Shown here piece after piece: positions 4,584 to 32,900 of a stretch of DNA of 56,595 bases; positions within the stretch are counted from its first letter, which is position 1; the number at the start of each line of letters is the position of its first letter. A model generated the notes under the pieces. That model did not search any database. It was not told the origin of the DNA and saw only the letters and a program-made list of their open reading frames with translations. The stretch comes from a virus (taxonomy: Duplodnaviria > Caudoviricetes): positions 1-56,595 of the IMG/VR virus record IMGVR_UViG_3300020045_020339; one strand, 5' to 3'. Both the position numbers and the translations under genes were made by a program.

Positions 4584-5261
4584 ATGGCAAATCTACAAAC
4601 AAAATCCGATTCACTAATCGGTAAAACTTTCCAGTATTTAACAGTTACCAGCATTTCAAAGTATCCACGGCCATGGTCTAAATTAGACTATGATTGTTTA
4701 TGTATCTGCGGAAAAATTACCCAAGCTTCAAAAAGACAGTTAATTAGCAAAAAACAGGGGTTAAATAAAAGGTCATGTGGTTGTATGACAAAGATTCTTC
4801 AGGGTGAAAATAGGCAAAAGGAAAAGAGAACTGATGACCACAAACGCTTGCATCATATATGGTGCGGGATGAAAGCCCGATGTTATGATGAAAAGCATTT
4901 ATCTTATGAAAATTATGGTGGGAAAGGAATTTTTGTTTGTGATGAATGGCTCAATGATTTTATTAAATTTCGTGATTGGTCTTTAATTAATGGTTATAGT
5001 AAAAATCTTTCAATTGATAGAATTAATTGTAGTGGTAATTATGGCCCGGGTAATTGCAGGTGGGCAGATCTGGAAACACAAAACAATAATAAAAGCACAA
5101 GCCATAATATTATAATAAATGGAGTTACAAAAACACTTACACAGTGGGCGAAACAAAACGGACTTAATAAAAATATGGTCACGAAAAGAATAATGAGAGG
5201 TATGTCTGAAGTAGATGCTGTTACCTTACCCCGCCAAAAGACGATGCAATCTTTCAAGTGA
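4584..5261 (+). CDS. HNH-type homing-endonuclease-like protein
   Basis: CICG, SCGC, RLHHIWCGMKARCY, NYGGKGIFVCDEW and SIDRIN...GNYGPGNCRWA...QNNN motifs. Confidence 0.8.
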   Translation: MANLQTKSDSLIGKTFQYLTVTSISKYPRPWSKLDYDCLCICGKITQASKRQLISKKQGLNKRSCGCMTKILQGENRQKEKRTDDHKRLHHIWCGMKARCYDEKHLSYENYGGKGIFVCDEWLNDFIKFRDWSLINGYSKNLSIDRINCSGNYGPGNCRWADLETQNNNKSTSHNIIINGVTKTLTQWAKQNGLNKNMVTKRIMRGMSEVDAVTLPRQKTMQSFK

Positions 5262-6806
5262 CTTTTGTATTAGGGTACCATCGGGAGTACTAATGGTACT
5301 TTCATCATGTACCGCAAAGGGCTGCTCTATCAAGAGTAGCCCTTTTTCTTTTAGTATCAAGGCTTTACCAGCAAAGAGGGAATAAAGTTTAGGGGTTCTA
5401 TAAATACCATTATAGGTTAGGGGAATTTGAAATAAAATATTTAAAAGCGACTGTTGTTTATGCAACGGCATCTCCAAAAAAAGTTCCGGCAGGTTTAAAA
5501 GTTTAGGTAATAATTGATCCAGCATTTCAAATAGTACATTGGTTTCGGTACCAGCTTTTGCCAATTCTACTTCATAGCCAGAGATCCTTTCCTTTATTTC
5601 ACCGGTAACCCGGTTGTAAATACCAGCATCAACATCAGCAGTTAAAAACTTTTCCTGTACTTTTTCCAACTCCCGTTTTGCTTTCTGGTGTTCAATATTC
5701 AGCCGCATAATATTGCCACCTTTATTATTTTGGTGGTTCTTAATCACCTCTACCATGCTGTATTTTATTGTTTCAACATCAGCTGCTGAAAGGGAAAGGA
5801 TCTGTAATATCTCCAGCATGGTACCATGCAATTTGGTTGCGGAGTAATTATTTTCCGGATGACTATTGCATTTATAATACCAGTAGTATTTTCCATGCCG
5901 GCCTTTACTATTACCAGCAGTCATTTTTCGGCCACAGGTGCAATACAATACACCACGTAACCATACTTCACTTTCTGCCTGGTGGCTAACCGTTTTTTTA
6001 TTAAGCCTGTTCATGGCTTTGTAATAGTCCAGTTTACTTACAAGCGGTTCATGTATTGCATCCACTTCAAAGGCTGGATTGTTACCATTAGCAGGAACTG
6101 CAATTATGCCGGCATAAAGAGGGTTCGATAAAATGCGGGCTACAGCCGACTTGCTACGTAACTTTTTTAATGCCGGTAACAATGTTTTTATCTGTTCAAT
6201 ATTTACACCATCATTGTATAAAGTAAAAACCTGCTTAATAATATCAGCCTGTTCTTTCACCGGTACCATCACCGGCTCATGCTTACGCAGCTTCTTTTCT
6301 TCTTTACTCAGTTTAGTATTTTGGTAACCGTATGGTGCCAGGCCACAGTAACGGCCCCGGCACAAGCTGTTGTAAATACCATCCTTTACACGCTGCTTTA
6401 TTCTGTTATATTCATTGTTGCTGAACAGTAGCTGCATGATCCGGTTCAGCTGGTTGCCAATGTCCTCATTATTACGATCAACCGCATCAGTAACAGTAAG
6501 TACTTTTACATTTAACCGGTCTTCTATTTCCCGTAGTTTTAAAAGTGCATCCAGTAAGGTGGCCCGGCTAAAGCGATCAATGTGAAAGATGATCAGGTAC
6601 TTTATAGATTTGTTTGCCTTAAGGTATTTTTCCAGCGCAATCCATTCGGGCCGGTTAAAGGTAAAAGCGCTGCGGCCGTTATCGGTAAATACTTTTTTAA
6701 GGTGAAGGTTATTGCTGCTGCAGTATCGTTCTATGCCTGTTAATTGAGATTCCAGCGAATTACTCTGGTCCTTATCTGATAATCTTCTGTAACCGATCGC
6801 ATCCAT
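5226..6806 (-). CDS. Large serine recombinase (integrase)
   Basis: N-terminal resolvase motifs YRRLS and DRFSR, APYGY, recombinase domain ILSNPLYAG, zinc ribbon CTCG...YYKC, coiled coil. Confidence 0.93.
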   Translation of the reverse strand: MDAIGYRRLSDKDQSNSLESQLTGIERYCSSNNLHLKKVFTDNGRSAFTFNRPEWIALEKYLKANKSIKYLIIFHIDRFSRATLLDALLKLREIEDRLNVKVLTVTDAVDRNNEDIGNQLNRIMQLLFSNNEYNRIKQRVKDGIYNSLCRGRYCGLAPYGYQNTKLSKEEKKLRKHEPVMVPVKEQADIIKQVFTLYNDGVNIEQIKTLLPALKKLRSKSAVARILSNPLYAGIIAVPANGNNPAFEVDAIHEPLVSKLDYYKAMNRLNKKTVSHQAESEVWLRGVLYCTCGRKMTAGNSKGRHGKYYWYYKCNSHPENNYSATKLHGTMLEILQILSLSAADVETIKYSMVEVIKNHQNNKGGNIMRLNIEHQKAKRELEKVQEKFLTADVDAGIYNRVTGEIKERISGYEVELAKAGTETNVLFEMLDQLLPKLLNLPELFLEMPLHKQQSLLNILFQIPLTYNGIYRTPKLYSLFAGKALILKEKGLLLIEQPFAVHDESTISTPDGTLIQKSLERLHRLLAG

Positions 6807-7111
6807 TATTTTAATATTGCTAATGCCTGTTTTAATAATTCAGCAGCAGTAGGTTTTTTAGTTGCACGGTGCATGTAATTGGTATAGCCATAAAACCACT
6901 CCATAGAAACGTTGTACAGGTTGGAGGCTTTTAAAAATTGCTCGTGCTGAAAAGATTGTTTGCCATCAAGTATCTGCTTTTTATTGTTGGAGTGCTTAAA
7001 TCCTATTTTAAGTAAAAAATCTTTTTCACTACCCACCAACTTTTTATAGATGCACCAGTCCATCAGCTCCAGCATTCTCTTATCCCAAACAGGTATTTTT
7101 TTTGCAGCCAT
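6806..7111 (-). CDS. Putative HTH-like protein translationally coupled to integrase
   Basis: 101 aa; YNVSMEWFYG resembles the end of an XRE HTH domain; stop overlaps integrase ATG. Confidence 0.5.
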   Translation of the reverse strand: MAAKKIPVWDKRMLELMDWCIYKKLVGSEKDFLLKIGFKHSNNKKQILDGKQSFQHEQFLKASNLYNVSMEWFYGYTNYMHRATKKPTAAELLKQALAILK

Positions 7112-7129
7112 TAGTTAATACTTTTAATA

Positions 7130-7345
7130 CTATTTTTTACGGCAATCAACATCATTGCCTAATGTATCGGTAAAATTTATTTGCCTGTATTCATCTTCGG
7201 TCATACAGCCAACATCTTGATAAACATTTGAATTGTACCTTACCGGGCACTCCCAGCAGTAAACTTTATCTTTTTTGCAACTGTTAAAAATTACAATTGC
7301 TAAAGTGACAAAAAGGAGCAGTTTGGTAAATTTTTTTATTTTCAT
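7130..7345 (-). CDS. Small Cys-containing lipoprotein in lysogeny operon
   Basis: Basic N-terminus, hydrophobic core, FNSC-KK lipobox-like site, four further Cys. Confidence 0.6.
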   Translation of the reverse strand: MKIKKFTKLLLFVTLAIVIFNSCKKDKVYCWECPVRYNSNVYQDVGCMTEDEYRQINFTDTLGNDVDCRKK

Positions 7346-7515
7346 TTTAATAGGTTGATTAATAATATTTGAAAGTATATGTTTTTATTTTAAAGCCTTT
7401 ATTTTGATAAATAGCTTTCGAAAGAACCTTACTATCATTCTATGCAGTTCGATAATAATCCCTAGTCGGCCATGGTACTTCATAAATCGATTTTTGTTAA
7501 ATAGATATGGTTCAC

Positions 7516-7761
7516 TTATTTAATTTTCGATAAGTCTGAATCTTTTGTTTTATGCAAAATATTTACAACTCTTTCTTTACTTACACCACTGTTAATGGCT
7601 ATTTCTGCTAATAATAATATTTGTGCATTTAGTAAACGGTTTCGCTTACTTGAACCAACAGTATAAGCGATTGTAATGGCTAACAAAACAAAAAATATTA
7701 TTGTGCCAAAAGAAAGAAACAACAAAAAATCATCGGGTTTAATTGCAGATTGTAATAGCAT
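7516..7761 (-). CDS. Single-TM membrane protein
   Basis: 81 aa with a long N-terminal hydrophobic segment, directly downstream of repressor. Confidence 0.6.
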   Translation of the reverse strand: MLLQSAIKPDDFLLFLSFGTIIFFVLLAITIAYTVGSSKRNRLLNAQILLLAEIAINSGVSKERVVNILHKTKDSDLSKIK

Positions 7762-7765
7762 ATTA

Positions 7766-8524
7766 TTATATTTTAATTTTAAATTCTTTCTTTGCCGAAA
7801 TAGTTTTTTTGATCAATCTTCTAAAAACCCAAAGTTCTTTCAGGTCCTTTTTATCAAATAGTTTTTGTGGTGTGTGAGTTTCATTATCACTTATTAATAC
7901 CCATTGGCCATTATCTTTTACAAAAACTCTTTTTATGGTAACCATGGTATCAGTTACTAAAACATAAACGTAATAATTTCTGATATTGTCCCAATCTTCG
8001 GTAGGTACCTGGCTGCAAAGCACATGATCACCGGCTGTAAGAGTGGGCTCCATACTATCGCCATCCACTTCAAAGTACCTCCATATTGCACCTGCATAGC
8101 TCACACCAGGAGGAATAGCGTATTTATCAAGAGAGTTTAAAAGATCAATATTATCATAAGAATTTACATAGCCAGCCCTTGCCTTTACTGTTACCAGTGG
8201 TACTCTAAATTCTTGCTTTTCATTTTTTATCGACCTTCTTTTTACCATATAATCAACCTCTGGTTCCTCCAAAGTATTGTTTTCGATTGTCGAAATATCG
8301 AGCATTTTAGGAAGCTTTCCTATTTCTATATAGGCAGGATTTACACCGAAATATTTACTCAAGCGTCCTAAAAAAAGTGAGCTTATTTCCTTGCTACCAC
8401 CTAAAATATCTGAAACATAGTTGCCAGACCGATATCCAAGAGCTAAGCTTAAGGTATCGTTGGTAAGCTTATGTTCATTCTTTAAAAAATCTATAATCTC
8501 ATTAAGTCGTTCAGTCTTTTTCAT
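7766..8524 (-). CDS. cI: CI-like repressor (HTH plus S24 autopeptidase)
   Basis: N-terminal HTH, ARAG cleavage-like site, FEVDGDSMEPTL (catalytic Ser), VTIKRV (catalytic Lys); divergent from small Cro-like gene. Confidence 0.9.
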   Translation of the reverse strand: MKKTERLNEIIDFLKNEHKLTNDTLSLALGYRSGNYVSDILGGSKEISSLFLGRLSKYFGVNPAYIEIGKLPKMLDISTIENNTLEEPEVDYMVKRRSIKNEKQEFRVPLVTVKARAGYVNSYDNIDLLNSLDKYAIPPGVSYAGAIWRYFEVDGDSMEPTLTAGDHVLCSQVPTEDWDNIRNYYVYVLVTDTMVTIKRVFVKDNGQWVLISDNETHTPQKLFDKKDLKELWVFRRLIKKTISAKKEFKIKI

Positions 8525-10293: not shown

Positions 10294-10413
10294 ATGTTAG
10301 CATTAAAAATTATCGGCTGTATCATCCTTAGTTTAATAGTAATAGCAGCAGTTGGTTTAATTGTTATTGTTTTAAAAATACCTGTTGATGGTGGTTATGG
10401 GGATGAGGTATAA
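10294..10413 (+). CDS. 39-aa single-TM peptide (not in ORF track)
   Basis: MLALKIIGCIILSLIVIAAVGLIVIVLKIPVDGGYGDEV with A-rich leader. Confidence 0.6.
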   Translation: MLALKIIGCIILSLIVIAAVGLIVIVLKIPVDGGYGDEV

Positions 10414-10457
10414 AATTTATAATGTGGTTTCTCTTTGAGGGGAATCCTAGTTTCGAC

Positions 10458-10648
10458 AGGGCTGTGTATATACACTGGCCCTCCTTTAAAAAAAAGTTCT
10501 TTAAATATTTGCAGGTTCAGGGTTTTATTAGGGTAAAGAGACGGTAGCATTTTTATGCAGGCCGTCCATTTTAAAAATTTGGTTCAAGTATGTTCAATAT
10601 AGCAAGCAATCGTTAGTCGGGTTGTGTCTACAACCTGGCTTTTTAAAA
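10458..10648 (+). other. Non-coding array of three tetraloop hairpins with a boxA-like element
   Basis: Hairpins 10458-10482, 10540-10566 and 10615-10640, each followed by TTTAAAAA; GTTCTTTAA at 10496-10504. Confidence 0.6.
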
Positions 10649-27173: not shown

Positions 27174-27710
27174 ATGGCAAAAGCTGATAAGCAGGTAATT
27201 ATTGATTCTATCATAAAGGATATAGAAAAAGGAACCGACCGTGGTAAGGTAATTGCAAAGTATTGCAAAAAACTTCAAAAATCTGATCGTACAATAGATA
27301 GTTACTGGAAAATTGCAAATGAACAATACAAAGAAAGACAGAGCAAGGCTAAGGCGGCGGCGGATGCAGCTTATATCGCAGCTAGTGCTGAAGCCGCTAA
27401 ACAAGCTGTAATGAGCTCACAGGAGCGAAAGGAGATTTTAAGCAAAATAGCTAGAGGTGAAAGAACATCACTTGAACCAAATCCTAAAAAACCGTCTGTT
27501 CTTATAGAGGTGCCAGTAATTGTTGATACTTTAGAAATAATAAGAGCAATAGGCGAATTAAATAAAATGGAAGGTGACTATGCTCCTACTAAAGTCGCTC
27601 CTACCAATGTAAAAGGCGAAGACCTGCAGCCGCCACTTGATTACTCAAAACTTTCAGTTGCAGAATTAGAAGCTTTAAAAGCAATACATGACAAACACGC
27701 TGCCGTTTAG
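27174..27710 (+). CDS. terS: Terminase small subunit
   Basis: ERKEILSKIARGE and IRAIGELNKMEGDYAPTK segments; immediately upstream of and overlapping terL. Confidence 0.8.
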   Translation: MAKADKQVIIDSIIKDIEKGTDRGKVIAKYCKKLQKSDRTIDSYWKIANEQYKERQSKAKAAADAAYIAASAEAAKQAVMSSQERKEILSKIARGERTSLEPNPKKPSVLIEVPVIVDTLEIIRAIGELNKMEGDYAPTKVAPTNVKGEDLQPPLDYSKLSVAELEALKAIHDKHAAV

Positions 27711-29145
27711 TATTGACATTAATAAAATTAATGCAGCGCTTGCCGGTAAAGAGTTGAAGCGGTTTGTTCTATATACTAAGGGAGATTACATAGTTAAGCC
27801 ATTCCACGAATACATAATGCAGCGGTTGGATGCCTTTGCAAAAGGTGAGATAAAGAAGCTGATGATATTTGCACCGCCACAGCATGGCAAAACAGAAATT
27901 GCCTCACGTCGTTTTCCTGCTTATTTCCTTGGCCACAATCCCGAAACAAAAGCAGCAGTAGCCAGTTATTCGGCAACGATAGCACACGAAATTGGCAGGG
28001 ATATAAAAAACATTATCAATAGCCAGGAATATAGAGAAATTTTCCCGAAAGTGACAGCTGGTAAGAATGTGAATGGTAATACCAGTATGTCGGATGCAAG
28101 CCATTACTACCATATTTCCAGTACTGAAAAAAAGAATAATGGTTATGTGTATACTGTTGGCCGTGGCGGCTCTATTACTTCGAAAACTGTTGACCTTGGA
28201 ATTATTGATGATATTTTGAAAGGTAGGGAAGAGGCTACAAGTGCAGGAGTAAAGGGTAAGATGTGGCAATGGTATAAAGATGATTGGCGTACCAGGATGC
28301 ATAACGATAGTCAGGAATTGATAATGACAACACGATGGGCTGAAGATGATTTAGCAGGCAGGTTATTAAAAGAGGAAGCGGACCAGTGGGAGGTAATTAT
28401 TTTTCCAGCAATTAAAACAGAAGATTATTCAGCCTATGATCACCGACAACCCGGCGAAGTTCTTTTCCCCGAAAAACATTCACTGGAACGCATCCTGCAA
28501 ATAAAGAAGACTAATGAAACCAGTTATGATAGTTTATATCAGCAGAATCCTAAACCTAATACTAAACTGTTATGCCATCCTGATTTTAAAAAGGTAAAAG
28601 AGTTCCCGCTGGACTTGATCAACAAATGGATTATTGGTATTGACTACGGTATGAATGACGAAACAGTAGTGGTTGCTATTGGCTGCCATGAGAATAAACG
28701 TTATTGGAAAACATTGCTCTATCAACCAGGCAGGGAGATTATTAAAAATTATAAGGAGCAGGCTAAGGAAGAGGTAAGCGAAGCAGATACGGAAAAAGTC
28801 AACAACATTATCGTCAATGCCATTTACCAAGTAATTGTTAAGAATGGGCATGAGAAGTCACAGTGCTACAGTGAGCATGATAAGGTGAAGATTGTGAAGC
28901 TATTGGGTAAAGGGTTGCTGGTTTATTTGGCTCGTAAAACTATCAGCGAAGGTATTGAACGGGTGAATGAGCTGGATAATTATTATTTAGATACTGACCT
29001 GCAGATGTATAATGAGGTAAGTGTTTACCAGTTTAAGAATATCGGGGAAATAATATTGGATGAGCCTGTTGACGGTAATGACCATATTATGAATGCTGGC
29101 AGGTATGCGATTTATACTGACGATATTTTGAATGGGCAGGCGTAA
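27688..29145 (+). CDS. terL: Terminase large subunit
   Basis: Walker A APPQHGKT, Walker B IIDD, TRW coupling motif, YQQNP, nuclease GIDYG and DHIMNAGRYA. Confidence 0.93.
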   Translation: MTNTLPFSIDINKINAALAGKELKRFVLYTKGDYIVKPFHEYIMQRLDAFAKGEIKKLMIFAPPQHGKTEIASRRFPAYFLGHNPETKAAVASYSATIAHEIGRDIKNIINSQEYREIFPKVTAGKNVNGNTSMSDASHYYHISSTEKKNNGYVYTVGRGGSITSKTVDLGIIDDILKGREEATSAGVKGKMWQWYKDDWRTRMHNDSQELIMTTRWAEDDLAGRLLKEEADQWEVIIFPAIKTEDYSAYDHRQPGEVLFPEKHSLERILQIKKTNETSYDSLYQQNPKPNTKLLCHPDFKKVKEFPLDLINKWIIGIDYGMNDETVVVAIGCHENKRYWKTLLYQPGREIIKNYKEQAKEEVSEADTEKVNNIIVNAIYQVIVKNGHEKSQCYSEHDKVKIVKLLGKGLLVYLARKTISEGIERVNELDNYYLDTDLQMYNEVSVYQFKNIGEIILDEPVDGNDHIMNAGRYAIYTDDILNGQA

Positions 29146-29171
29146 AAATTTGTAATCAAAAACAAAAAGAT

Positions 29172-29768
29172 ATGAAAAAGATTAGTACTTTATTTAAAAA
29201 GAATCCTGAAAATTTAGGTTTAGTAATTAACGAAATCAACCCCGAAAACCAATGGGTATTTGATCAAGGAGTGAAATCAACAAGAAAGTATGATGGTATG
29301 GCATGCGCTATTATTAACGGAGAATTGTATAAAAGAAGAGATGTTAAAAAGGGTAAACAAATACCTATTGGCGCAATTGAGTGCCAAGAAGCTGATAAAA
29401 TCACAGGTCATCATCCGCACTGGATAAAATGTTTCCCTGAAAACAAAGAAGATGAATTATTTTTTGAAGGTCTTGCCGCATTGAAATTACAAACAAAGTA
29501 TCCGATTGAATTAGGATATGGAACTTATGAGTTATGCGGTGAAAAAATATCAACACAGAGATTTGACCCAAACTTTAATCCTGAAAAAATTTCAGGGCAT
29601 TTAATGATACCACATGGTAAAGATATATTGAGTTTGCCTTCTTTAGAATTTGAAGCACTTAAACAATATTTAACCAATCCTGAAAATGATATTGAAGGTA
29701 TTGTTTTCTACCATCCAGATGGCAGGATGTGCAAGATTCGGAAATCGGATTTTGGTATTAAAAGGTAA
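29172..29768 (+). CDS. ATP-dependent RNA-ligase-like nucleotidyltransferase (DUF5565/RLIG1-like)
   Basis: Motif I TRKYDG, motif III YELCG, motif IV IEGIVF, motif V MCKIR; HPHW segment; no OB domain. Confidence 0.75.
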   Translation: MKKISTLFKKNPENLGLVINEINPENQWVFDQGVKSTRKYDGMACAIINGELYKRRDVKKGKQIPIGAIECQEADKITGHHPHWIKCFPENKEDELFFEGLAALKLQTKYPIELGYGTYELCGEKISTQRFDPNFNPEKISGHLMIPHGKDILSLPSLEFEALKQYLTNPENDIEGIVFYHPDGRMCKIRKSDFGIKR

Positions 29769-29899
29769 AATACTAAATTAAAAAACCGGGCCACTTATTG
29801 CAGCCCGGCTCCCCATTAAACATAAAAAATAAGACAAGTACAAAAACGCATTTAGATACACAAGGTAAAAATAATATTTAAAGTATTATATTAATTTTA

Positions 29900-29907
29900 T
29901 AGCTTTG
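29900..29907 (+). promoter_or_regulatory. Bacteroidota -7 promoter box at start of fold-back RNA
   Basis: TAGCTTTG ends 2 nt before the first paired base (29910). Confidence 0.6.
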
Positions 29908-30007
29908 AATTACCGGCTCCCCGAAACCACGGATTTGTCAGGGAACCGCCAAGTGTGCGAGCGGCAAATCCGTATCTTGCCAACCAGTGTAAATTATAAA
30001 ACAAAAA

Positions 30008-30301
30008 ATGCCTATAATGAATTTGCGTTATGTTAAAGTAGCTTTGCTCATGAGCGTTAAGCGTTTAGTGGGCTTATTTAAAAAGAAAAAAAGTTGCGGA
30101 GCATTGCCGGATACGGCAAAAAAACACCCGCTTTCGGATTCGGGTGCAAACGCTAAAAGCGTTTTGAATAGTAGTAATTTTATTTTAAGCCAATTTCCTT
30201 GTTGTCAATTTGAGCGTAGTGTTCGTATAAATGTTTCCAATAAGCGTCCATATGTTCGTCAAGGTAGCTGGCATGCATACATCGAATCTCGTCTAAAGTA
30301 A
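30008..30301 (+). CDS. Possible ORF whose start is sequestered by the fold-back
   Basis: ATG 30008 with A-rich leader; cationic amphipathic N-terminus; C-terminal part is antisense to another ORF and may be spurious. Confidence 0.3.
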   Translation: MPIMNLRYVKVALLMSVKRLVGLFKKKKSCGALPDTAKKHPLSDSGANAKSVLNSSNFILSQFPCCQFERSVRINVSNKRPYVRQGSWHAYIESRLK

Positions 30302-30440
30302 TACCCCTTTTATCCGCTTCCTGCTGTAATATTATATCTTCAAAAAAGTCTTTACTTACTTTTAATTCAACCAACAATTTCAGTATAATAGATAGTTGGT
30401 CGCTTTGGGTTACATTAAAACTAAAATCCTTTGGTAACAT
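30180..30440 (-). CDS. Acidic helical hypothetical protein inside the fold-back loop
   Basis: 86 aa, protein-like composition, the only plausible minus-strand gene in the late region. Confidence 0.6.
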   Translation of the reverse strand: MLPKDFSFNVTQSDQLSIILKLLVELKVSKDFFEDIILQQEADKRGITLDEIRCMHASYLDEHMDAYWKHLYEHYAQIDNKEIGLK

Positions 30441-30673
30441 AATCTTCGCTTAATTCTCCGCTCTGAGGTGGCGAGAGCTTTTTCTTTTTAAATAAACCGC
30501 TAACAAAGCGGCTACTTAATATAACGACTAATTATAGGCTTTTTTGTTGCCTTTGGTTGGCAAGATTTTCGGGGAGCCGGTAACGGTCCCATATGCCCGG
30601 CTATAAAATTATTTCTCAAAAAAAATTAAAATAATACTTTGGTTATTAAAATAATTTATCTTTATGGCAACAA

Positions 30674-30898
30674 ATGCCACCAATAACCGCCGAAATAGTA
30701 AAGAAACTTGATAATAAGGTGAGGTGTCTGTGCTGCAAAAGGATATTATTTGAAGGTGTAATTGAGCGTGGTTGCATTAATATTCAATGCCCATCATGCG
30801 GAACTGACAATGTATATTTTGTAGCAGGCGTTCAAAAGGATCGTTTTGTAAATAGTGGCAGAAGCATGGTGGATATGATAAAAAATACTGTGAAGTAG
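30674..30898 (+). CDS. com: Mu Com-like zinc-ribbon regulator
   Basis: VRCLCCKRILF...INIQCPSCGTDN matches the Com-family CxxC...L...I.I.CPxC..N pattern. Confidence 0.75.
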   Translation: MPPITAEIVKKLDNKVRCLCCKRILFEGVIERGCINIQCPSCGTDNVYFVAGVQKDRFVNSGRSMVDMIKNTVK

Positions 30899-30960
30899 AG
30901 CAGCGGTAGCTCGTCGGTCTCATAAACCGAAGGTCGTTGGTTCGAATCCATCCTTCGCAA
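30889..30960 (+). tRNA. tRNA-Met(CAT), initiator-derived, CCA not encoded
   Basis: Acceptor TGTGAAG/CTTCGCA, D-stem GAGC/GCTC, anticodon stem TCGGT/ACCGA with CAT at 30921-30923, TTCGAAT loop. Confidence 0.9.
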
Positions 30961-30973
30961 CAAATAATTTTAA

Positions 30974-31017
30974 TGAACCTAAAAGGTCGTGAGTGTAATG
31001 CTCCCGGCCTTTTTTTT
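30974..31017 (+). promoter_or_regulatory. Conserved leader hairpin, copy 1 (before portal)
   Basis: TGAACC-TA-AAAGGTC-N17-GGCCTTTT; same pattern at 47614. Confidence 0.7.
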
Positions 31018-31026
31018 ATTCAAAAA

Positions 31027-32535
31027 ATGAATTTAAAACAGGCAGGTAAAGAAATAATAAAAGGTAATATCGGCAATGCCTTTAGCCAGTTGTTGACACC
31101 ATCAACATACCGTGGCAATAGTCCGTTACCTTCTCCTGCTGTTCCGCTTGATGTAATGGCCTTTGGCGGTGATGGTGTTGGCGCCTTTTATAGTTGGAAT
31201 GGAATAGGCAGTTCTTTGACAGCATATGAAGAATGTCCGCCGTTAATGTCGGTGTGTAACCGCCGAGCCTTAGCATTTATCAATGCAACTATATCGGTAG
31301 TTAATAGCGCCGGTAAACCTTCTACCTCATCACAGAGTAAGCAGGTATTAAAGCGGCTGGCAAATCCTAATCCATTACAAACGACAGCAGCATTTTTAGC
31401 ACAGGTACATATTTACATTGATTTGGTAGGCTATGCAGTTATTGCACCTATAAGGCCTGTTGGTTTTGAAATGTATGAATCGGAAAGCCTTTGGGTAATA
31501 CCTCCAACATTATGCAGCCTTGGTTGTGATAGTACAGGATTGAATTTTACTACCGGCGGAATTGATTATGTGATGATAGGAGGCCGCAGGGTGAATACTT
31601 CAGATGTAATGATCATTACTGATATTAATCCATCCATCAGGGAAATGGTAATACCAGGTGCAAAAATCAAAAGCTTGGAATTGCCCATTAATAATATCAT
31701 AGGCGCTTACCAAAGTGAAAGCACATTGATAAAGCACAGGGGGCCAACGGGGTTAATAACAAACGAGATCAGTACGCAAATGGGTGCACCATTGCCTTTA
31801 TCCGATACCGAAAAGGCCAGAATACAGGCAGGCTTTAACCGGGCTTATGGCTTATTGAACGGACAAAGTCATGTTGTAATTACAAGTGCTGCATTAAAAT
31901 ATCAGAAAACTGGCTTCAATGCGGAAGAGCTTGGCCTGCATAAGACAATTGAAAACGGCACCAAAGCAATTTGTGATACGATCGGTTTCCCAACTGAGTT
32001 GATGGGTATCATCAACCCTACTTACAGCAACAAGGAAAGCGCTGATAAGGAGGTCTACACTAAATACATCATTCCTTCTGCAATCAGCATTGCTCAACAG
32101 CTTGGCAGCTACCTGTTGCCCATATCCGATAAGCTATGTTTTGATTATCGGCATGTACCTGAATTACAGCAGGACAAACAGAAAGAAGCGCAAGCCAGGA
32201 AGACTTTAATCGATAGCCTAAAAATAGAATTTGATTTGGATTTGATCACTCAAAACCAAATGTTGGAGCTGATGGGATTGCCGCCACTCGGTCCTGAAGG
32301 TGATTTAAGAAAATCACAAATACCTCCGGGCAATATTCCTTTAGCTGTTACACTTGGCGTTGGTGGCGTACAGGCTTTAACAGCAGTATTAGCTGCACAA
32401 GGTATTTCAGAAGAAGCAAGGCAGGCAACGCTTGAAGTAGTGTTTGGTTTGAAACCAGAAGATGCTAGAAGGATGAGTTCACAAGCTGCTACAGAAACAT
32501 CACAAAATTCATTACAAACCACCGCTCAACAATAA
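31027..32535 (+). CDS. Portal protein (HK97-like)
   Basis: ATG 31027; LANPNPLQT, GYAVI, AICDTIGFPTELMG and TYSNKESA segments; follows terminase. Confidence 0.88.
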   Translation: MNLKQAGKEIIKGNIGNAFSQLLTPSTYRGNSPLPSPAVPLDVMAFGGDGVGAFYSWNGIGSSLTAYEECPPLMSVCNRRALAFINATISVVNSAGKPSTSSQSKQVLKRLANPNPLQTTAAFLAQVHIYIDLVGYAVIAPIRPVGFEMYESESLWVIPPTLCSLGCDSTGLNFTTGGIDYVMIGGRRVNTSDVMIITDINPSIREMVIPGAKIKSLELPINNIIGAYQSESTLIKHRGPTGLITNEISTQMGAPLPLSDTEKARIQAGFNRAYGLLNGQSHVVITSAALKYQKTGFNAEELGLHKTIENGTKAICDTIGFPTELMGIINPTYSNKESADKEVYTKYIIPSAISIAQQLGSYLLPISDKLCFDYRHVPELQQDKQKEAQARKTLIDSLKIEFDLDLITQNQMLELMGLPPLGPEGDLRKSQIPPGNIPLAVTLGVGGVQALTAVLAAQGISEEARQATLEVVFGLKPEDARRMSSQAATETSQNSLQTTAQQ

Positions 32536-32900
32536 TGCAGACACTAATTATCATATCAGTAGTAATAATATTTTTTATCACAGCATGGATGTGTAAAAAG
32601 CAGTTGGTAAAAGTTCTTTTAAAACTGAAAGGCAAGCTGCATATTCAAAGCCTGCGTACTGCTATCAATGATGCTGATGCGGATAAAGAAAAAACCGATC
32701 GTAAGAATTTGGTAGTGTTCAATACATCTACCGGTGAATTTGAACCTGTGCAAAAAAGAATGCTGAAGGGTATTGCAAAAATGAAAAGCCAGAACAAAGT
32801 ACCGGCAGGTTTTAGGCAACCAAAGGCGGTAAAGAAATCAGCATTGACTTTACAAAAAGTGAAGCATGTTGAAAACAAATCATTATACGTAACTAAATAA
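32535..32900 (+). CDS. Basic protein with N-terminal TM
   Basis: TAATG coupling; LIIISVVIIFFITAW. Confidence 0.65.
   Translation: MQTLIIISVVIIFFITAWMCKKQLVKVLLKLKGKLHIQSLRTAINDADADKEKTDRKNLVVFNTSTGEFEPVQKRMLKGIAKMKSQNKVPAGFRQPKAVKKSALTLQKVKHVENKSLYVTK

Follow-up and report, generated by a model that had tools for sequence, protein, structure and literature searches.

How a small backward-facing gene, enclosed by two stretches of DNA that are able to pair with each other, comes to sit within a long block of opposing genes is the question raised by a locus in the terminase-portal gap of a 56.6-kb phage genome. Small reverse-oriented accessory genes abound in phage genomes, and their tolerance inside opposing long operons is little understood. 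The window analysed here is the whole stretch of 56,595 nt. By its sequence the phage is temperate, with Bacteroidota-type promoters, and it carries a large serine recombinase and an S24 repressor-like gene, both on the minus strand. From 8.6 kb on, a list of ORFs with 50 aa or more has 53 entries, 52 of which lie on the plus strand; the lone exception in that list is a 51-aa ORF (10395-10550). The list left out an 86-aa minus-strand ORF in the terminase-portal gap and kept an overlapping 97-aa plus-strand ORF instead. The 86-aa gene has the orientation of the lysogeny genes, opposite to about 48 kb of plus-strand genes.

An earlier note on this DNA had described a promoter-driven fold-back RNA with six nested helices, a side hairpin, a TAGCTTTG box and an antisense 86-aa ORF, and all of these elements were found again at the positions where it had placed them. 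The arms and helices, which carry no strand of their own, and the side hairpin are listed below, in most cases with the search that recovered them.

29910 to 30101: left arm, 192 nt (alignment and pair probabilities)
30456 to 30583: right arm, 128 nt, which on the minus strand is the leader ahead of the 86-aa gene
29910-29926 with 30567-30583: helix, 17 bp, perfect (inverted-repeat search)
29974-29986 with 30554-30566: helix, 13 bp, perfect (arm alignment)
30000-30018 with 30531-30548: helix with one bulged base (inverted-repeat search and arm alignment)
30026-30042 with 30511-30526: helix with one G·U pair and one bulge (arm alignment)
30074-30090 with 30479-30495: helix, extendable to 20 nt at 95% (inverted-repeat search)
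30096-30101 with 30456-30461: helix, GCGGAG with CTCCGC (arm alignment)
29927 to 29973, both strands: hairpin of 47 nt specific to the left arm, with a 9-bp perfect stem of ACGGATTTG (29929-29937) and CAAATCCGT (29965-29973)

Alignment of the left arm with the reverse complement of the right arm gave 104 identical positions, 4 mismatches and 13 gap events, so that 96% of the aligned positions (104/108) were identical. The 47-nt hairpin has no counterpart in the right arm and folds alike on the two strands (-16.0 on plus and -15.6 on minus, with 48/500 shuffles as good on each strand). The inverted similarity reaches beyond the limits first described, with 29872-29903 matching 30600-30648 at a score reached by 2/2000 shuffles, and a whole-genome scan found no nested inverted-repeat sets elsewhere in the 56.6-kb genome.

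Comparison with close relatives showed that the repeat lies within a larger unit that is either present or absent.

29854 to 30602, strand not applicable: indel cassette, 749 bp, with the joint 29853->30603 in contigs of near-identical relatives
30603 to 30648, no strand: backbone DNA inverted-complementary to the left end of the cassette at 29872-29903 (27 nt at 85%, 12 nt at 100%)

Four sequencing runs were aligned, and the cassette-less joint was found in two of them, X1 and X6, which come from two studies (one contig each, with sides of 33 and 75). Sequencing runs contained at most 0.19 of the sampled words, none of those listed was an RNA run, and the cassette interior was uncovered in the four runs save for short pieces of low likeness. 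The flanks of the cassette-less contigs differ from this phage at 0-4 positions, and the empty site of both carries the same 11 other letters in place of the cassette. Other joints, at 29188->30356, 29598->30327 and 29264->29385, had sides of 21-47 letters at an 80% threshold and were taken to come from other organisms. These results demonstrate that 29854-30602 is a discrete presence/absence DNA cassette that is missing from near-identical relatives. The backbone at 30603-30648 is kept in those relatives, and the inverted similarity thus crosses the right junction. The earlier note had also considered that the segment might simply be MITE-like or invertible DNA; the presence/absence behaviour agrees with this, but the ends of the indel (29854 and 30602) do not match those of the repeat, lying 56 and 19 nt outside its core (29910 and 30583). 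No target-site duplication was seen, the empty site holding 11 unrelated letters and the sequence having no doubled flank. A 7-9-nt likeness of the 11-letter filler to the right arm was put down to chance by a rough count, and a flanking direct repeat (29868-29897 with 30628-30657, score 25) was not above chance, its score being reached by 174/2000 shuffles.

The cargo of the cassette is a single ORF.

30180 to 30440, minus strand: 86-aa ORF with three predicted helices and no known family

The ORF scored 0.317 per codon, compared with 0.33 ± 0.087 for 44 phage genes, and a search of 1.84 billion representatives returned three distant full-length homologues of its protein (82-89 aa; E 9e-8 to 4e-5). 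The rival 97-aa plus-strand ORF had a codon score of 0.087, and its only database match was itself. The ORF first noted as antisense is in all probability a real gene, since its codon usage is typical of the phage, its product has three homologues and it has a terminator of its own on the minus strand. The protein matched no family in Pfam, PHROGs, NCBIfam or PADLOC. Its AlphaFold model (pLDDT 70) gave no Foldseek match at E ≤0.001, the best being E 3.4 in PDB and 1.3 in BFVD; the Atlas gave no usable match by features, and by structure (TM 0.44-0.65, query) only unnamed or unrelated clusters. A word-index search with the protein returned itself only, a profile search returned the same four proteins, locus searches found no loci encoding the protein or its homologues (P0001-P0004), and tblastn against phages gave no match. 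The homologues P0002, P0003 and P0004 come from contigs of 1,128, 4,088 and 2,642 bp.

Promoter and terminator motifs are arranged around this gene as follows.

29900 to 29907, plus strand: TAGCTTTG, matching the Bacteroidota-type -7 box perfectly; TTTA stands 19 nt upstream, where a -33 element would lie
30657 to 30664, plus strand: TATCTTTA, a near-consensus putative -7 box ahead of a Com-like ORF, read by eye
30102 to 30165, minus strand: three tandem hairpins just past the stop of the 86-aa ORF
30139 to 30126, minus strand: terminator-like site followed by GTTTTTTTGC, made of the middle hairpin (30126-30147) and then T7 (30119-30125)
29779 to 29815, minus strand: hairpin and T-run in backbone DNA left of the cassette, kept in the cassette-less X6 contig

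The definition of the -7 box, TAnnTTTG, is that of PMC7366714. Consistent with the earlier description, the canonical TAGCTTTG box stands at the left foot of the fold-back and ends 2 nt before the first paired base, 29910; as a putative promoter it would start a plus-strand RNA at about 29912-29914. On the plus strand TAnnTTTG is enriched in intergenic DNA, which holds 8 of the 20 cases while making up 9.9% of the genome. A second plus-strand TAGCTTTG lies in the left arm at 30039-30046, and both boxes are confined to the left arm, the mirror positions of the right arm being interrupted. Upstream of the 86-aa gene (30441-30700), no minus-strand TAnnTTTG was found, and inspection by eye showed only versions with one mismatch. 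The gene does have its own intrinsic-terminator-like site, consisting of a hairpin and T7 33 nt past its stop at 30180. On the plus strand there is no terminator-like site in 29000-31200, which makes a plus-strand RNA across both arms plausible.

The explanation that we prefer, with a rough probability of 0.45, is that this is an accessory gene cassette, or moron, with a reverse gene, and that the arms of the cassette would pair in plus-strand transcripts into a hairpin serving for insulation, processing or antisense control. Because the locus is a discrete indel and holds a real gene, the fold-back RNA is better taken as part of the cassette than as an RNA gene in its own right. Starting from the observed repeat, indel, gene-like ORF and promoter and terminator motifs, we infer the RNAs, their cleavage and their regulatory effect as follows. 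A 749-bp moron-type indel in the terminase-portal gap would carry as cargo one small backward-facing gene of 86 aa with its own terminator, bracketed by an interrupted inverted repeat of 192 versus 128 nt. Since the surrounding block and the promoter box at the left edge of the cassette would be read on the plus strand, the arms should pair in any plus-strand RNA that crosses the cassette, forming an interrupted stem of about 105 bp with the antisense copy of the gene looped out. This stem may be what allows a reverse-oriented gene to persist within a late operon. It could serve in processing or insulation, as a hairpin of the type cut by RNase III, examples of which are the stalks of rRNA precursors and the hairpins of T7 early mRNA. 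By holding the antisense RNA in cis it might also set the degree to which transcription of the plus strand silences the gene. If the arms are indeed a working insulator or antisense device, they would be a simple, portable solution and a useful engineering part. As it stands, the case is a single instance, an anatomy of interest more than a discovery.

The cassette resembles several known systems in part. A moron is a separately transcribed unit that one phage carries and a close relative lacks between the same two genes, a concept also used in PMC7067206. Like phage morons, the cassette lies between two conserved genes, is absent from near-identical relatives, and contributes a small gene without known function, with its own terminator, to a temperate phage. 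Unlike them, it has its gene bracketed by a 192/128-nt interrupted inverted repeat, and its canonical promoter faces the 3' end of the gene, for which no promoter of its own was recognised. RNase III stalks are formed where the ends of precursor rRNA pair around the mature rRNA, and related hairpins occur in T7 early mRNA. Here too distant 5' and 3' segments could pair into a long imperfect stem with several hundred nt looped out, but the loop is the antisense of a gene and not a mature RNA. Convergent antisense control operates in temperate phages, as with lambda oop against cII and P22 sar against ant. Here likewise a small gene has a promoter directed at its 3' end, which would yield a cis-antisense RNA; the oop and sar RNAs differ in being short, with their own ends not paired.

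How far the arms bear the mark of a working RNA was assessed by folding. The fold-back is real: a 686-nt stretch was far more stable than its shuffles on both strands, reaching -215.4 kcal/mol on plus (z -7.27) and -203.5 on minus (z -7.10), with 0/20 shuffles as good in either case. Pair probabilities of the long-range helices were mostly 0.7-1.0, on plus and minus alike, and in the plus-strand fold 77% of the arm nucleotides were paired. The arms by themselves reached -145.9 on plus and -135.9 on minus; compared with -46.2 and -30.7 for the arms folded singly, their pairing gains about 69 kcal/mol. The plus-strand advantage of 10-11 kcal/mol lies wholly in the arms, the loop being equal (-66.6/-66.3), and plus was favoured in all five non-zero segments among the seven (sign-flip 4/128, about 1 in 32). 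Much of it comes from one element.

30043 to 30073, plus strand only: hairpin specific to the left arm, 12 pairs including four G·U, overlapping the second TAGCTTTG at 30039-30046

This hairpin folded to -10.8 on plus (2/500 shuffles) versus -3.6 on minus (98/500), and its segment contributes -7.0 of the -11.4 kcal/mol strand asymmetry. Two of the five arm-specific segments were better than shuffles, 30043-30073 on plus and 30496-30510 on both strands. The strand asymmetry thus favours plus only mildly; the bias comes mainly from one 31-nt segment and is borderline once the 10 arm-segment fold tests are counted.

The earlier note had proposed that selection acts on the RNA, partly from mismatches that read as G·U wobbles only on the plus strand. 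Such pairs do exist on plus at 30032/30520, 30094/30477 and 30106/30451, but two others read as G·U on minus (29909/30584 and 30021/30528), a balance of 3 versus 2. One of its two examples, G30032-U30520, stands, while the other, U30069-G30499, requires a bulged base and hinges on how the arms are aligned. The plus bias of about 10 kcal/mol and the plus-only hairpin speak for RNA-level selection, and the near-equal z of the two strands and the 3 versus 2 wobbles speak against it. Selection on a plus-strand RNA structure is therefore weakly supported, and the earlier interpretation as a whole partly supported. As the minus strand folds nearly as well (z -7.10), the signal is mostly that of a DNA-level inverted repeat.

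The same data bear on a neutral origin, in which the arms would be the functionless by-product of an inverted duplication of the gene leader and the adjacent backbone, for example by replication template switching. Near-equal folding of both strands fits such a relic, as does the 96% identity at aligned arm positions, which is what a recent duplication would leave; the inverted similarity enters backbone common to cassette-less relatives, which fits a left end copied in situ from the right, and the case is a single instance. The pattern of differences is unlike the neutral decay of a duplicate, however, since 13 gap events accompany only 4 substitutions. Long inverted repeats in DNA are known to be unstable, and this could also yield an excess of indels. 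Further points against the relic are that two of the five arm-specific segments beat their shuffles, that the plus-strand advantage is small yet consistent, and that both TAGCTTTG boxes survive in the left arm only, with the mirror positions broken. On balance we regard a relic as unlikely; if the arms are the scar of an inverted duplication, they would record how such cassettes arise.

A stand-alone RNA, which is the earlier note's interpretation in its strong form and in which the promoter would drive a plus-strand non-coding RNA of about 670 nt, new in phages, with the looped ORF secondary, seems improbable to us. Its attractions are the promoter box, which stops 2 nt short of the first paired base, the plus-strand energy advantage, the plus-only hairpin with its four G·U pairs and the 77% pairing of the arms. 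In addition, a tRNA gene (Rfam tRNA model, 65.8 bits) lies 300 nt downstream of the fold-back, and some large phage RNAs adjoin tRNA genes. Against this, a scan of 29000-31500 with the 4227 models of Rfam 15 at E up to 1 returned the tRNA and, besides that, only two miRNA matches at chance level and below threshold, which agrees with the original view that the structure belongs to no named family. Like GOLLD and ROOL, the element spans several hundred nt in a phage near a tRNA gene; unlike them, it has no Rfam match and its long perfect helices form a simple rod; such helices resemble a young DNA repeat and not conserved non-coding RNAs. The lack of a plus-strand terminator-like site past the right arm leaves such an RNA with no defined 3' end, and the ORF in the loop is itself a real gene, with homologues elsewhere and a terminator to itself. 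Homologues of the arms were found in none of the phage, plasmid, viral, genome or metagenome collections, which leaves no covariation to draw on and makes the arms a single instance. Copies of the cassette or arms were likewise absent by blastn from phages and plasmids and by exact-pattern scans, which are blind to single changes, from viral, genome and metagenome contigs; within the genome the only match was the cassette itself. The literature yielded no account of a repeat-bracketed reverse gene like this one, which is no proof of absence.

A related and similarly doubtful idea joins this RNA to the gene. A constitutive promoter would produce an RNA of about 670 nt, rod-like in shape, with its ends paired so as to enclose, as in a cage, the antisense of a lysogeny-oriented gene, and access by RNase III or a helicase would switch between prophage expression and lytic shut-off of the 86-aa protein. 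Its signature would be the perfect helices, the self-folding arm-specific inserts and the plus-only G·U hairpin, and, if true, selection would have acted on the RNA itself and the phage would possess an RNA device of a new class.

We consider it very unlikely that the locus is an invertible switch, in which the terminal 17-bp repeats would flip 29927-30566 so that the promoter at 29900 reads either antisense (OFF, the present state) or the 86-aa gene and its terminator (ON). A perfect 17-bp inverted repeat does stand directly behind an inward-facing canonical promoter, the gene has no canonical promoter in the present orientation, its terminator would point correctly once flipped, and promoter inversion is reported to be common in Bacteroidales. 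Terminal repeats are sufficient for invertons, however, leaving five further nested helices unexplained. The only recombinase of the phage is an integrase-type large serine recombinase (526 aa, 5226-6806, with integrase-type domains) 23 kb from the cassette, and no tyrosine recombinase was found in the phage (no PF00589 match), although a host enzyme might act in its place.

A small transposon of the MITE, IS or MPME kind, with the arms as terminal inverted repeats and the 86-aa protein as a transposition factor, has hardly any probability left: it would account for the presence/absence polymorphism among near-identical phages and for inverted repeats combined with a small ORF, as described for MPME1 (PMC3029335), but it is already largely refuted by the boundary mismatch of 56 and 19 nt, and the similarity crossing the right junction, the 11 replaced letters in place of a target-site duplication, the single genomic copy with none in phage, plasmid, viral, genome or metagenome collections, and a protein without match in Pfam, PHROGs, NCBIfam or PADLOC all stand against it. 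Mycobacteriophage MPME1 is, in that text, a 439-bp element with IR-L and IR-R and a 6-bp addition without known origin at its left end. The cassette is like MPME1/2, as far as they are described there, in being of sub-kilobase size, with inverted repeats, one small ORF and odd junction letters, and in having been found by comparing near-identical phages. The MPMEs of that account are found at numerous sites, every copy identical and with the repeats at its very ends, unlike this single cassette whose ends lie off the repeats, and here the repeats make up nearly all of the non-coding part. The PeSLs of T4-type phages are described in PMC2839356 as repeats that combine a promoter with a stem-loop, lie on either side of ORFans and bring about the shuffling of modules. 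With these the cassette shares, on the features given there, an ORFan in a plastic region, flanking promoter-like AT-rich sequence and stem-loops, and indels between close relatives. PeSLs, in the same account, are direct repeats present many times per genome, unlike the inverted repeat here, which is unique in its genome, and the flanking direct similarity of the cassette is not above chance (174/2000 shuffles).

A further relative speaks for the preferred reading of a moron-type cassette. A terminase query for relatives returned one locus in viral contigs and none in genome contigs, and a portal query returned no loci. In the relative so found (L002), the terminase is 61% identical and the order is terminase, small Cys-rich ORF and portal, with nothing cassette-like between them. 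Downstream of the cassette, the order in the present phage is Com-like ORF, tRNA and portal. The octamer TATCTTTA ahead of the Com-like ORF also precedes the small Cys-rich ORF of the relative, as read by eye.

All the parts of the fold-back that an earlier note had described were recovered at their positions, namely six nested long-range helices between a left arm (29910-30101) and a right arm (30456-30583), a side hairpin, the Bacteroidota-type -7 box TAGCTTTG at the left foot (29900-29907) and a minus-strand ORF of 86 aa in the loop. The element and its neighbours are arranged as follows:

27688-29145, large terminase (PF03237)
29172-29768, RNA ligase (phrog_14301, E 1.8e-62)
29900-30583 (approximate ends), fold-back, between the RNA ligase and the Com-like ORF
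30180-30440, minus strand, 86-aa ORF
30674-30898, Com-like zinc-ribbon ORF (weak match)
30889-30961, tRNA-Met (CAT) (Rfam, 65.8 bits)
from about 31030, portal (PF04860)

Folding of both strands against shuffled sequences, as proposed in that note, gave structures far better than the shuffles on each (z = -7.27 for plus, -7.10 for minus). The 686-nt stretch reached -215.4 kcal/mol on the plus strand and -203.5 on the minus strand (0 of 20 shuffles as good on either), and the long-range helices were retained in the centroid structures and pair probabilities of both. Pairing of the two arms gained about 69 kcal/mol over the arms folded alone, and inverted similarity extends outward (29872-29903 versus 30600-30648; score reached by 2 of 2000 shuffles). 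A whole-genome scan found nothing comparable elsewhere in the phage. The fold-back had no match in Rfam, which rejects a known RNA family and agrees with the note's failure to recognise one.

We aligned Logan contigs from four runs of four studies to 27500-32600. One contig from each of two runs (X1 and X6) passed straight from 29853 to 30603, both with an identical stretch of 11 unrelated letters at the joint, and their flanks differed from the window at only 0-4 positions; 29854-30602 (749 bp) is therefore a discrete cassette missing from near-identical relatives, and we are confident that the fold-back is an indel gene cassette. The cassette itself was not found in any sequencing run examined. 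The X6 contig also lacked 29143-29778, which holds the RNA-ligase gene (joint 29142-29779, 6-letter overlap), with TAAAAA at both ends and the terminase stop codon within the first copy; X1 contigs covered this gene in part. The RNA-ligase gene is thus a second, independent indel, and the terminase-portal gap is an insertion hot spot. In L002, a less close relative whose terminase is 61% identical, terminase, a small Cys-rich ORF and portal follow within 350 bp. The L002 large terminase (4804-7239) has 811 aa, versus 485 aa in the window, and its extra part is probably an intein since it matches LAGLIDADG and homing-endonuclease domains (PF14528, E 4.6e-9; PF05204, E 9.1e-7). The relatives are mosaic. 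The terminase gene of the X1 relative (27700-29060) was mostly about 92-95% identical to the window (21 of 339 and 28 of 388 letters differing), with up to 21 of 152 differing in one piece, and its Com-like region about 99% identical (4 of 324).

The ORF within the loop very probably represents a gene. At 0.317 per codon, its codon score is at the average for 44 phage genes (0.33 ± 0.087); an overlapping 97-aa plus-strand ORF, which the listed ORF set keeps in its place, scored 0.087. HMMER, run exhaustively against 1.84 billion representatives, returned three full-length homologues (82-89 aa, 30-39% identical, E 9e-8 to 4e-5), all singletons on short contigs from different sources. A minus-strand hairpin with a T7 run lies downstream of the stop codon. 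The protein fell into no Pfam, PHROGs, NCBIfam or PADLOC family; its AlphaFold model has three helices (pLDDT 70) and gave no fold matches at E ≤0.001 (best E 3.4 and 1.3).

The phage is temperate, judging from a minus-strand block at 5.2-8.5 kb (module 5226-8524) that encodes a 252-aa S24 peptidase repressor-like protein and a large serine recombinase of 526 aa with Resolvase, Recombinase and Zn_ribbon_recom domains; no tyrosine recombinase was found. The complete 56,595-bp record has direct terminal repeats, and from about 8.6 kb to its end 52 of the 53 listed ORFs (≥50 aa) are on the plus strand, the exception being a 51-aa ORF at 10395-10550.

Most of the fold signal is symmetric between strands, as in any DNA inverted repeat. 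The arms alone gave -145.9 kcal/mol on plus versus -135.9 on minus, with the loop equal on both; when the stem was cut at the perfect helices into seven segments, all five non-zero ones favoured plus (sum -11.4 kcal/mol; sign-flip 4/128); and on plus only, the arm-specific stretch 30043-30073 folds into a hairpin of 12 pairs, four of them G·U (2 of 500 shuffles versus 98 of 500 on minus). These three results lean to the plus strand but are borderline given the number of tests, and mismatches tallied only 3 G·U on plus versus 2 on minus; selection on an RNA rather than a DNA duplication, as the earlier note had argued, is weakly supported. Searches of phage and plasmid collections, and exact-pattern scans of viral, genome and metagenome contigs, returned no homologue of the arms. 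The arms differ by 4 substitutions and 13 gap events, a ratio not expected if a duplicate simply decays. It could reflect selection that keeps the helices intact and tolerates inserts at their junctions, or the proneness of long inverted repeats to indels. That the fold-back is a neutral relic, left by an inverted duplication in situ, seems improbable. A stand-alone non-coding RNA, to which the plus-strand leanings are also relevant, is somewhat more doubtful again.

Insertions break the right-arm mirror positions of both left-arm TAGCTTTG boxes (29900 and 30039), and no canonical -7 box was found on the minus strand upstream of the 86-aa gene. An invertible switch would account neatly for the inward promoter and the gene's missing one, but it leaves the inner helices unexplained and has no evident invertase, and we consider it unlikely. 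A terminal-inverted-repeat transposon is the least credible reading, given indel ends that overshoot the repeat core by 56 and 19 nt, inverted similarity running across the right junction into backbone DNA, no target duplication, and a single copy in the genome with none in the phage, plasmid, viral, genome and metagenome collections searched. The promoter-like direct repeat flanking the cassette did not exceed chance (its score was reached by 174 of 2000 shuffles), and the PeSL-like mechanism described in PMC2839356 offers an analogy only.

The most likely reading, still tentative at a probability of about 0.45, is a paired-arm mechanism around a reverse-oriented accessory gene, which would be expressed from the minus strand like the lysogeny genes. 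A putative plus-strand RNA would either be driven by the 29900 box or read in from further upstream, the latter being allowed because no plus-strand terminator-like site was found in 29000-31200. Its arms would close into a long interrupted stem with the antisense of the gene looped out. On the model of rRNA precursor stalks and the hairpins in T7 early mRNA, the stem may serve RNase III-type processing or insulation, and may also control antisense silencing.

TAnnTTTG, defined as the Bacteroidota-type -7 box in a section of PMC7366714, occurs 20 times on the plus strand, 8 of them within the intergenic 9.9% of the genome. The tRNA-Met shares the final 10 nt of the Com-like ORF. Together with the RNA ligase, which lies 1.1 kb upstream, it hints at tRNA supply or repair as a small theme of the terminase-portal gap. 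The octamer TATCTTTA precedes the small Cys-rich ORF in both phages, at 30657-30664 in the window and at about 7309-7316 in L002; the two ORFs show weak similarity (32% over 22 aa, E 0.001 in a single comparison), and in the window just 9 nt separate the box from the ATG, which would predict a nearly leaderless mRNA. A terminator-like site on the minus strand (29779-29815), made up of a hairpin of 16 pairs and a T-run after it, lies in backbone DNA that element-less relatives share; no minus-strand gene adjoins it in those relatives.
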